DNA of 62,697 nucleotides, filler included, from Mycoplasmatota bacterium (lineage in GTDB: Bacteria > Bacillota_I > Bacilli_A > RF39 > UBA660): NCBI GenBank assembly GCA_012727915.1. It is 4 parts of 4 records of this genome, joined end to end, with 100 filler letters (N's around TTAATTAATTAA, not from the genome) between each part and the next. Parts side by side here need not be neighbours in the genome. Positions count along the whole stretch, not along the records: positions 1 to 21,980 come from JAAYGD010000040.1; 3 more parts are not named here. The stretch is one strand, 5' to 3'. How positions within the stretch are numbered: the first letter of the stretch is position 1; every line of letters starts with the position of its first letter. The position numbers are program-made. This document shows, in pieces, positions 1-3,000 of the stretch.

Positions 1-3000
1 ATCAATTTCTAATGGATCTTTTTATAATAATAAGAAAATAATAGATGTTATTAATCATTCTAAAAATAATGATTCTAAACTTCATATTATGGGTTTGATT
101 AGTGATGGTGGAGTTCATTCTCATATTGAACATTTTAAAGCATTATTAAAAATGGCAAAAGATAATAATGTAAATAAATTATATTTTCATTTAATTACTG
201 ATGGAAGAGATACTTTGCCTGATTCTGCTTATAAATATATTGAAGAGATAGAAAAAGAATTAAATGGTTTTGGAAGAATAGCAACTATATCCGGAAGATA
301 TTATGCTATGGATAGAGATAATAACTTTGATAGAGTAAAAAAATATTATGATGCTGTAATCAATAATGTTGGAGAACATTATAATAGTTCTAAAGAATTA
401 ATTGACAATAATTATAATAAAAAAATATTTGATGAATTCATTAATCCAGGTATTCTGGATTCAAACGGAATAATAGAAGAAAATGATGGAATAATTTGGG
501 CAAATTATAGACCCGATAGAGCATGGGAAATATTATCTTCTATAACTAATAATGAATTTGAAAAATTTGAAAAAAAGAAGTTTAATAATATAAAGCTTGT
601 TACAATGATGCCGGTAGCTGATTCTGTTATTAATGAATATGCTTTTAAATTGGATAAATTGGATAATACTTTTGGGGAGTATATAGCGAGATTTGGTTTA
701 AAACAACTTAGAATAGCAGAGACAGAAAAATACGCTCATGTTACATATTTTTTTGATGGAGGAATTGAAAAACAAATTCCTAATTGTGATAGGGTTTTAA
801 TCAATAGCCCTAAAGTAGCAACTTATGATTTAAAACCCGAAATGAGTTCCTATGAAATAACAAGGAAATTATTAGAAATAATGGATAAATATGATGTAGT
901 AATACTTAATTTTGCAAATGGAGATATGGTTGGTCATACAGGAGTTATAGAGGCCGCTATTAAAGCAATGGAAGCTATTGATTATAATATGGGTTTAATA
1001 TATGAGAAAGCAAAACAATTTGGATTTACTTTGTTAGTTACTGCGGATCATGGAAATTGTGAAGAGATGTTAGATGTTAATGGAACTGTATTAACTGCAC
1101 ATTCTTTAAATAAAGTTCCATTAATTATAACTGATAAAAAATATTCTTTAGTAAATGGAAAGTTAGGGGACCTAGCGCCTACTATGTTAAAAATTTTAAA
1201 TATTGAAAAGCCTGAAGAAATGACGGGAGATTCATTGATAAATATTGAATAAATGTTAATTATGTTATAGAATATAATTAAAGGAGGGCATATGTATTAT
1301 CAAAATTATAATAATTATGGCGGAAATTCTTTTGCACAAGGTTGGATGATTGCATCTTTGATATTAGCAATAGTAGGAGGTATAGTAACTTTATTATTTT
1401 TTCTTAAAAAATCAGGTAAAGAAAAAAATAATAAGAAGTTAAAACTACTATATAATTTTCTAAATTTTGATTTTCTAACATTGGAATACATAGTTAAATT
1501 CTTATATGTTACAGTTACGATTTATATAGTATTAAGTTCATTTAGTTACATATCTTATAGTTTCGTATACTTCTTAATGTATTTGATACTTGGAGTTTTA
1601 TTTGCAAGAATCATATTTGAACTAATAATGCTAGCTATAAAAATATGCAACAATACAACTGAAATCAATCAAAAATTAAAAAAATAACAAAATATATAAA
1701 TAAATGCAATTAAGGTATTGCATTTATTTTTTTGTTTTGATATACTTATTTAGCAAGTTGTGGCTTAGATGCGTAAGGTTGCTGATACACCAGGCAAAGT
1801 TGTCTATATGTATTGGGTTATTTATGCGGAGCAAGTTTATACAATTGATATAAGCGAAGGGAGGATAAGATGGCAAATCGAATCAGAATTAAACTTAAGG
1901 CTTACGATCACAGAGTATTAGATCAAGCAGCAGGAAGAATCGTTGAAGCTGTTAAGAGAACTGGTGGGGACATAAGTGGACCAATTCCACTACCTACTGA
2001 AATTCAAAAGTACACTATATTGAGGGCTGTTCACAAATATAAAGATTCTCGTGAACAATTTGAAATGCGTACTCATAAAAGATTGATAGACATCAACAAT
2101 CCTAGTAAGGAAACTGTCGAGACATTGACAAGATTAGACTTACCTAGTGGCGTTGACATAGAAATTAAATAGGAGGAAAAATGAAAAAAGGAATCTTAGG
2201 AAAAAAAGAGGGAATGACTTCGGTTTTTACTAAAAATGGTATTTTGGTTCCTGTTACAGTAATAAGTGTAGAACCTAATGTTGTAATGCAAATAAAGAGC
2301 GTTGAAAAAGATGGATATGATGCAATACAAATGGGTTATGGAAACAAAAGAGAAAAAATAAGTAATAAACCTGAAATGGGCCATGCAAAAAAAGCAAATA
2401 CTACACCTAAGCGCTTCTTAAAAGAAATTAGGGGTGTAGATGTATCTAATTATCAAGTTGGACAAGAAATAAAAGCAAATTTATTTGAAGCTGGAGAAGT
2501 TGTAGATGTAACTGGAGTTAGTAAAGGTAAGGGCTTCCAAGGTGTTATAAAAAGATATAATCAAACTAGAGGTCCTATGGGACATGGTTCTCAATATCAC
2601 AGAGGTGTTGGATCTTTAGGATCAAGATTACCAATGCACGTATTAAAAGGTAAAAAATTGCCTGGTCATATGGGATTTGAAACTGTTACTATTCAAAATT
2701 TAGAAATAGTTGAAGTTGATACTGAAAACAATTTATTGTTGGTTAAAGGAAATGTTCCTGGACCAAAAAAATCTATGATAATAATTAGATCATCAGTAAA
2801 AAATCCTGATGAAATAAGAGAGACACTTGATTTAATTAAATACAATAATGAAGAGTTATTAGAAGAAAACAATGAAACACAAGAAAATGTTGAAGTTGTA
2901 GAAGAATCATCACAAGGAATAGAGCAATAGTAAAATATTGATTGTGATGGAAGGAGGAAGAATGTCTAAAGTGGCACTTTTAAATTTAAAAGGCGAAAAA

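Follow-up and report, generated by a model that had tools for sequence, protein, structure and literature searches.

Why does a bacterium without sporulation genes keep a homologue of Spo0A among its glycolytic genes? Many non-spore-formers retain spo0A, and the family examined here offers a replicated natural experiment on this question, with at least nine changes of sporulation state among 37 genomes. The locus was found in a Mycoplasmatota bacterium (GenBank assembly GCA_012727915.1, here G000); the whole stretch of DNA analysed, 62,697 nucleotides with filler included, is referred to as the window. On one strand the gene order is udk-like, gap, pgk, tpi, orf119, spo0A, gpmI, and the order gap-pgk-tpi-orf119-spo0A-gpmI given by a first-pass annotation (contig 19572-25252) was read directly from the genome. 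The sole part of this cluster within the window, at positions 1..1252 on the + strand, is the 3' part of gpmI, encoding BPG-independent phosphoglycerate mutase (iPGM_N 243.6 bits, Metalloenzyme 196.7 bits). Its start lies ~245 bases ahead of the window (contig ~23756), and spo0A (contig 23010-23726, + strand; 238 aa) lies just upstream, outside the window. Also upstream on the + strand are gap (contig 19572-20582), which is the last gene of a udk-gap unit and has a hairpin and T-run at its 3' side, pgk (contig ~20653-21837), tpiA (contig ~21839-22540; TIM 244.9 bits) and the 119-aa orphan orf119 (g00282; contig 22617-22976). The orphan had no Pfam, NCBIfam or Atlas match, is present in all seven members of the genus (G000 and G001-G006) at 112-163 aa, and has a dN/dS of ~0.27 in the G000-G006 pair.

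The genus has lost sporulation. None of its seven genomes carries spoIIGA, which occurs in 42/42 consecutive relatives with a high-scoring Spo0A and in 9/22 with a low-scoring or missing one, and spoIVA scored above cut-off in 0/7, 39/42 and 9/22 of the same groups. SpoVAC/EB was found in none of the seven; in the family survey it was absent from three genus genomes and from 16 further spoIIGA-negative genomes and present in 62/64 others. As previously stated for G000, there are no sporulation sigma factors: G000, G001 and G006 each gave two matches, SigA and a SigH-type factor, compared with 8 and 10 in two relatives, and the same three genus genomes gave none for SpoIIP, GerA or AbrB/SpoVT. 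When the family's own sporulation proteins were searched against G000 by tblastn, nothing but SigA matched, and the slots for spoIIGA-sigE, spoVT and spoIIP, which lie inside contigs between ftsZ and rlmN, between mfd and metG, and beside rpsT, are empty. The earlier statement that stage II-V genes are lacking therefore stands for spoIIGA, spoIIP, spoIVA and SpoVAC/EB, but nothing can be read from the lack of SpoIIIA. Two control genomes with sporulation genes likewise gave no match for SpoIIIAE or SpoIIID, so their absence proves nothing, in line with the Erysipelotrichia spore-formers described in the available part of 10.1101/2022.02.25.481979. RF39 as a whole is predicted to be able to sporulate in the accessible text of PMC10868615.

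Profile searches recovered both domains originally assigned to the Spo0A homologue, Response_reg at 46.9 bits and Spo0A_C at 98.1 bits, and its TIGR02875 score of 144 bits is under the curated cut-off of 200. Its best structure matches are the DNA-binding domains 1LQ1 and 1FC3, and an AlphaFold model (11 sequences, mean pLDDT 85.8) has an intact (beta-alpha)5 receiver fold and a helical C-domain. The gene occupies the same locus as canonical family members, marking the protein as a Spo0A orthologue, yet one in which several of the traits that define functional Spo0A proteins are missing. In the receiver, E8-Q9 indeed replaces Asp-Asp while D55, T83 and K105 are retained, so the domain is atypical and not aspartate-less. 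The first-pass annotation had confined the loss of DD to G000 and one genus mate, but all seven genus members lack it, with EQ in G000 and G006, EK in G001 and G005, and the receiver deleted in G002-G004, where an in-frame deletion fuses strand 1 to the receiver end and takes out the phospho-Asp. G005 combines its EK pocket with a phospho-Asp to Asn change, and the D/T/K triad of G000 is not retained in four of its six genus mates. In receivers such as CheY the second pocket acid binds metal; here it is Gln or Lys in all four full-length genus members. With the pocket degenerate or the receiver deleted in 7/7, and with the sole histidine kinase found in G000, G001 and G006 adjoining the only other regulator, classical phosphorelay input is unlikely, as had been proposed.

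A change in the recognition helix, a point missing from the earlier description, accompanies the altered pocket, with ERAIRH replaced by ERAISR in G000. The 0A box is read by E213, R214 and R217 of Spo0A. In an alignment with 1LQ1, S191 of the G000 protein falls at B. subtilis R217, equivalents of E213 and R214 are present, and changes of R217 to Ser or Cys and of H218 to Arg occur in 7/7 genus members. The seven proteins are 40-82% identical, and no stop falls inside the Spo0A_C match in any of them. Cysteine makes up 55 of their 1427 residues (3.85%; 5.17% in the three receiver-less ones), whereas its share is 0.33% for sporulator-type Spo0A and 0.89% across the proteome of G000, and these residues cluster in and near the recognition helix with no invariant Cys column across the seven.

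Four -10 motifs in aligned spacers (ahead of udk, pgk, orf119 and gpmI) and three hairpin and T-run elements (after gap, tpi and orf119) punctuate the genus cluster and, as motif evidence, speak against a single glycolytic operon that includes spo0A. The sigma-A-type promoter motif of pgk (contig 20609-20637, + strand; TATAAT kept in 5/5 aligned) was the best of 51 promoter sites scanned, a total no higher than in shuffles. Two terminator-like hairpins lie between tpi and spo0A. One follows tpiA (contig 22539-22571, + strand; 10 pairs in 7/7, with one two-sided change) and precedes the TG-n-TATA motif of orf119 (contig 22589-22597, + strand; 7/7), and the other, ATGTAG-n4-CTACAT with a T-run (contig 22979-23001, + strand; 7/7, one mismatched; core ~-4 kcal/mol), is directly 5' of the spo0A ribosome site, with 15-19 nt from the last hairpin to the spo0A start in five of seven genus members. 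None of the AT-rich hairpins of the cluster was picked up by a terminator scanner. An extended -10 motif for gpmI, TG-n-TATAAT (contig 23731-23739, + strand; 7/7), sits at the spo0A stop. In G020, a sporulating genome of the sister group, a small ORF and a similar hairpin are followed by a 0A-like box and promoter, and this last segment is absent from the genus. Given two hairpins, a -10 motif of gpmI's own and a spo0A without a promoter, transcription of spo0A probably comes from orf119 by read-through, outside the glycolytic message. Elsewhere in the family, spo0A abuts tpi in G100, G072, G045 and G133 (gap -11 to 17 nt); there the two genes are probably co-transcribed, and an operon of the kind first proposed may have arisen as a side effect when the promoter was deleted.

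By searches for DNA sites, no canonical 0A regulon is left. Beyond the -10 and ribosome site, no 0A-like or other shared operator was evident at the udk/gap, pgk and gpmI promoters, and intergenic 0A boxes in G000 were not enriched (1 observed vs 1.3 expected). Genome-wide counts of a 0A box with TATAAT were 33 vs 110 in a reversed control for 20 non-sporulators and 151 vs 137 for 26 sporulators, a weak comparison because the control differs in CG/GC content. At oriC, three genus and two sporulator genomes had DnaA boxes and no perfect 0A box. ComEC was present in 5/5 genomes tested, sporulator included, and so a competence link is not discriminating.

The link between tpi and spo0A proved lineage-wide, as first suggested. 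Spo0A_C was found in 127/131 family genomes, tpi is directly 5' of spo0A in 41/48 newly fetched family loci, and tpi lies within 2.5 kb of spo0A in 28/35 of the nearest named loci and in 0/45 more distant ones (Bacillales, Clostridia and others), the nearest named records being uncultured Bacilli, Tenericutes and Mollicutes. Sporulator-type loci have a median tpi-spo0A gap of 106 nt (51 loci). A perfect 0A box, TTCGACA, lies within 150 nt upstream of spo0A in 84/113 sporulator-type loci vs 0/16 non-sporulators, and TATAAT lies upstream in 95/113 vs 2/16, where the 16 are the 17 non-sporulator loci with G117 left out. The position is ancestral: it is that of relatives in which sporulation genes persist and a canonical spo0A has a promoter of its own. 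Such a linkage predates the change in Spo0A and thus says nothing about a new job.

To follow spo0A after sporulation is lost, we defined non-sporulators as the 20 family genomes lacking both spoIIGA and spoIVA. An open spo0A frame follows tpi in 17 of them; spo0A is gone from G047 and G073, and only a displaced domain-like ORF is left in G054. The receiver is mostly lost in 7/17 of these proteins, with intact-looking receivers kept in G023 and G133. The ERxxRH helix is present in 2/17 vs 111/113 sporulator-type Spo0A; the latter have the phospho-Asp in 110/113 and DD in 101/113, one of the 12 not scored DD being an N-truncated frame. These residue counts leave out the non-syntenic domain-only ORFs matched in G033 and G054 and the second copies in G007 and G037. 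Genes were located by the Spo0A_C domain, so that receiver-only remnants would be under-counted, and none was seen after tpi in the three genomes checked.

The non-sporulators are scattered on a tree of pgk, tpi, gpmI and gap, from which 15/82 genomes with <300 aligned residues were dropped. On a second tree, using 37/67 genomes, the at least nine changes of sporulation state are joined by at least five receiver deletions, and a single clade of non-sporulators is rejected with a p-AU of 3e-10 (quick tree, LG+G4). One genus is itself mixed, with six canonical Spo0A proteins, all alongside spoIIGA, and four receiver-less ones, G138 among them. There are two exceptions of opposite kind: G138 (180 contigs, 5% contamination) has a receiver-less Spo0A yet a spoIIGA match, and in G109 the Spo0A is canonical although both spoIIGA and spoVA are missing. 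The new finding is a recurrent path for Spo0A after several independent losses of sporulation, in which the 0A-box promoter is lost, the receiver decays or is deleted in frame, and the helix is changed. The helix changes vary among the non-sporulator lineages with no convergence, a pattern that drift would also give and that counts against a retained job.

Selection on spo0A was estimated by Nei-Gojobori dN/dS. In the G000-G006 pair the DNA-binding domain has a dN/dS of 0.09 (pN/pS 0.13, bootstrap 0.06-0.24), compared with 0.15 for the N-terminal receiver part, 0.19 for tpi and 0.10 for gpmI, and close pairs of receiver-less genes in two other genera gave 0.14, 0.16 and 0.14 for the same domain. 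Sporulator pairs in the mixed genus have spo0A values of 0.01-0.05. For more distant pairs, in which synonymous sites are close to saturated, the values spread over 0.17-0.9, the highest of them at 0.6-0.9, and the pN/pS interval reaches 1 in 6/19 pairs of receiver-less genes. Constraint on the DNA-binding domain is therefore relaxed compared with sporulators, yet clearly present in three lineages, and close-pair values of 0.09-0.16 show that spo0A is retained under purifying selection.

A job for Spo0A outside sporulation had been put forward as a new concept, but both its presence in non-spore-formers and its metabolic roles are already known. In the portions of these sources available, PMC3533761 has a table of 30 genomes with spo0A without sporulation, 10.1101/2022.02.25.481979 covers 180 species and lists 40 non-spore-formers among 118 spo0A-positive genomes, and PMC4028888 reports vegetative and metabolic targets of Spo0A in C. 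difficile, where the protein is canonical and still drives sporulation, unlike that of G000. Spo0A of Macrococcus caseolyticus, Exiguobacterium, Kurthia, Planococcus and B. selenitireducens was likewise kept after near-total loss of sporulation genes, and the published accounts, in the parts available, give presence or absence and one degraded sequence; they contain no estimates of selection and no account of promoter loss, of repeated in-frame deletion of the receiver or of an altered helix. We found no paper in open-licence PMC or bioRxiv on the tpi-spo0A link, which agrees with its earlier description as undescribed, and likewise none on Spo0A proteins that lack the receiver once sporulation is gone or that lack the phospho-Asp in sporulators. 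The G000 protein shares with Spo0A of Bacillus and Clostridium (TIGR02875; 1LQ1, 1FC3) the receiver and Spo0A_C architecture, the fold and the D/T/K triad. It differs in lacking the second pocket acid, in the changes R217 to S and H218 to R, and in lacking a promoter of its own, a 0A box and a sporulation regulon, and three genus mates are receiver-less. Its pocket instead resembles those of the atypical receivers RitR and ChxR, which in the accessible part of PMC4395418 keep the first acid and Lys-Pro and have a variable or lost second acid; G005, with E-K...N, matches RitR E9-K10-N53 in the same text. G000 differs from RitR and ChxR in retaining the phospho-Asp and in having Spo0A_C as its output domain.

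We favor, by a modest margin over even odds, the view that the inherited family spo0A was left in place after sporulation was lost and was reshaped to give a DNA-binding regulator that works independently of phosphorylation and has a residual vegetative job unrelated to glycolysis. Transcripts that start at the orf119 promoter and run past the weak terminator would supply Spo0A at a steady low level, and it would bind DNA without phosphorylation, because the receiver-less forms, if active at all, must do so. The change of Arg217 to Ser or Cys together with His218 to Arg would shift binding from the TGTCGAA box to another site, and the protein would most likely dampen or tune a few sigma-A or sigma-H promoters. 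Several points weigh against this view: expression of a gene placed after a terminator may be minimal, spo0A has disappeared from G047 and G073 and is displaced or gone in G054, the receivers of G023 and G133 look intact, G000 itself keeps D55, T83 and K105, and G138 and G109 break the pattern. The main competing account, to which we give roughly half as much credence, is a slowly decaying relic, a passenger frame between essential genes that has no regulatory job and in which selection removes only changes that cause misfolding or polar effects. It would explain why the promoter was deleted and spo0A left behind a terminator, why the helix changes are heterogeneous, why dN/dS is several times the sporulator values and near 1 in some distant pairs, and why the gene is lost outright in 2-3/20 non-sporulators; the available text of 10.1101/2022.02.25.481979 likewise calls Macrococcus Spo0A highly degraded. 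Decay alone fits poorly, however, with dN/dS of 0.09-0.16 in four close pairs from three lineages, at or below tpi, or with a Spo0A_C match free of stops in 7/7 genus members at 40-82% identity. The locus tolerates deletions, yet the DNA-binding domain was repeatedly spared, and the other tested sporulation genes vanished without trace.

The remaining explanations carry less weight. It is rather unlikely that the protein is still a phospho-switch with a metabolic input, in which acetyl phosphate, or the single kinase acting through cross-talk, weakly phosphorylates D55, although D55, T83 and K105 are kept, the receiver part is under selection (dN/dS 0.15), the modelled (beta-alpha)5 fold looks intact, some relatives that have sporulation genes show Asp-Asn or Asp-Ser pockets, and an acetate-kinase-like ORF, named by eye, is present in G000. 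The genus as a whole opposes this, with a second acid of Gln or Lys in 4/4 full-length members, one Asp to Asn change and three receiver-less proteins. There is only a small chance that thiol or metal sensing took over from phosphorylation in the genus: the cysteine content (3.85% vs 0.33% in sporulator-type Spo0A) and its clustering near the recognition helix point that way, but there is no invariant Cys column, the sequences share common ancestry, and Arg to Cys would be a common step under AT drift. We hold the original proposal, that Spo0A is a regulator linked to central carbon flux and shares a transcript with the glycolytic genes it controls, to be just as improbable. CggR, the gapA-operon regulator, sits among gap-pgk-tpi-gpm-eno genes and has a sugar-phosphate ligand, an operator and the first position in its operon. 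The G000 protein likewise lies among glycolytic genes, but it belongs to another family and shows none of these CggR traits, with no SorC-type sugar-binding domain and no CggR-type operator ahead of gap. The proposal gains from the lineage-wide tpi linkage (41/48; 28/35 vs 0/45), from the four genomes in which spo0A abuts tpi (G100, G072, G045, G133), and from effects of C. difficile Spo0A on pgi and cggR that are probably indirect (PMC4028888, accessible part). It is countered by the ancestral nature of the linkage, which also holds where Spo0A is canonical and has its own promoter (median gap to tpi 106 nt), by the two hairpins that part tpi from spo0A in the genus and the -10 of gpmI's own, and by the lack of an evident operator at udk/gap, pgk and gpmI. 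A carbon-flux role and a wiring of spo0A into the glycolytic operon are not supported, and the claim should be dropped. Lastly, sporulation genes might hide in gaps of a bin that is 93.8% complete in 76 contigs, leaving Spo0A in the service of sporulation; this artefact is largely refuted by the absence of the genes from all seven genus genomes and by the slots empty in mid-contig, and we give it next to no weight.

The favored reading of a remodelled regulator can be extended to the whole family, though here we are more tentative and put the extension at somewhat less than even. With each loss of sporulation, Spo0A would have been pared along the same path to a transcription factor that needs no phosphorylation, often lacks the receiver, and recognises a new DNA site through a rewritten helix, with cysteine gating possible in the genus. 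The family may be predisposed to this, as the Asp-less Spo0A of genomes that keep spoIIGA would mean that sporulation started there without Spo0A phosphorylation. Graded forms of the protein, from intact through pocket-less to receiver-less, could be produced and compared in parallel, which makes a residual Spo0A job testable. On the practical side, spo0A alone is unsafe for calling uncultured genomes spore-formers; it is used as a marker in the available part of PMC11536998, and an upstream 0A box and an ERAIRH helix are suggested as better ones.

Two results are worth following, the recurrent trimming of Spo0A and its Asp-less forms in genomes that keep sporulation genes. In four spoIIGA-bearing genomes (G123, G094, G151 and G152) the only Spo0A lacks the phospho-Asp, a combination that, in genomes with a sporulation cascade, would challenge the rule that Spo0A must be phosphorylated. 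In G123 and G094 the Asp-less protein occurs alongside sigE/F/G/K, spoIIGA, spoVA and a 0A-box promoter, and in G151 and G152 it occurs alongside spoIIGA.

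Four relatives that retain spoIIGA encode a sole Spo0A in which the phospho-acceptor Asp is replaced by Asn or Ser, located at L030:1459-2226 in genome G123, at L036:1081-1842 in genome G094, and in loci L217 and L219. G123 and G094 also possess sigE/F/G/K and spoVA, and each carries a 0A box upstream of its Asp-less spo0A. Within the genus of G123, Asn occupies the phospho-acceptor position in 3 of 5 cases and Asp is retained in the other 2, and the Asp-less proteins have a canonical DNA-binding domain.

Tandem spo0A copies were found downstream of tpi in relatives G007 (L067) and G037 (L014), with the 0A-box promoter missing from the first copy in both and the first copy diverged in G007. 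Another relative, G132, encodes a 535-aa protein with three Spo0A_C-like repeats (L065:2350-3957). A Spo0A_C-like ORF in G033 (L064:2994-3467) is domain-only, is surrounded by phage-like genes and is not the spo0A orthologue.

Many relatives (L047-L057, L067-L095) have two genes of ~335 and ~410 aa between pgk and tpi, membrane and glycosyltransferase-like as named by eye, and an enolase-like 424-aa gene between spo0A and gpmI. The tpi-spo0A arrangement also occurs in L242, a record titled Acidaminococcus fermentans with a GC content of 30%, which is probably a mis-binned or mislabelled contig. In the window, a 131-aa membrane-type ORF (1292-1687) separates gpmI from the S10 ribosomal operon; a Pfam search with it returned no match, and a homologue (43%) adjoins sigG in G123.

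Of the 50 genomes with a spoIVA Pfam match, 6 show a break in it close to model position 124. In relative G048 (L102:1565-17837), spoIVA is split by a 16-kb element that is bordered by a large ORF, named by eye as serine-recombinase-like. The insertion looks like a skin-type excision element; among the literature matches listed, no paper was on spoIVA itself.

The only two-component pair of the source genome (L128:1483-2743, contig C46) has an apparent frameshift, leaving a 116-aa regulator and a shortened kinase, whereas the pair is intact in genus mates G006 and G001; the frameshift appears to reflect assembly error or decay.
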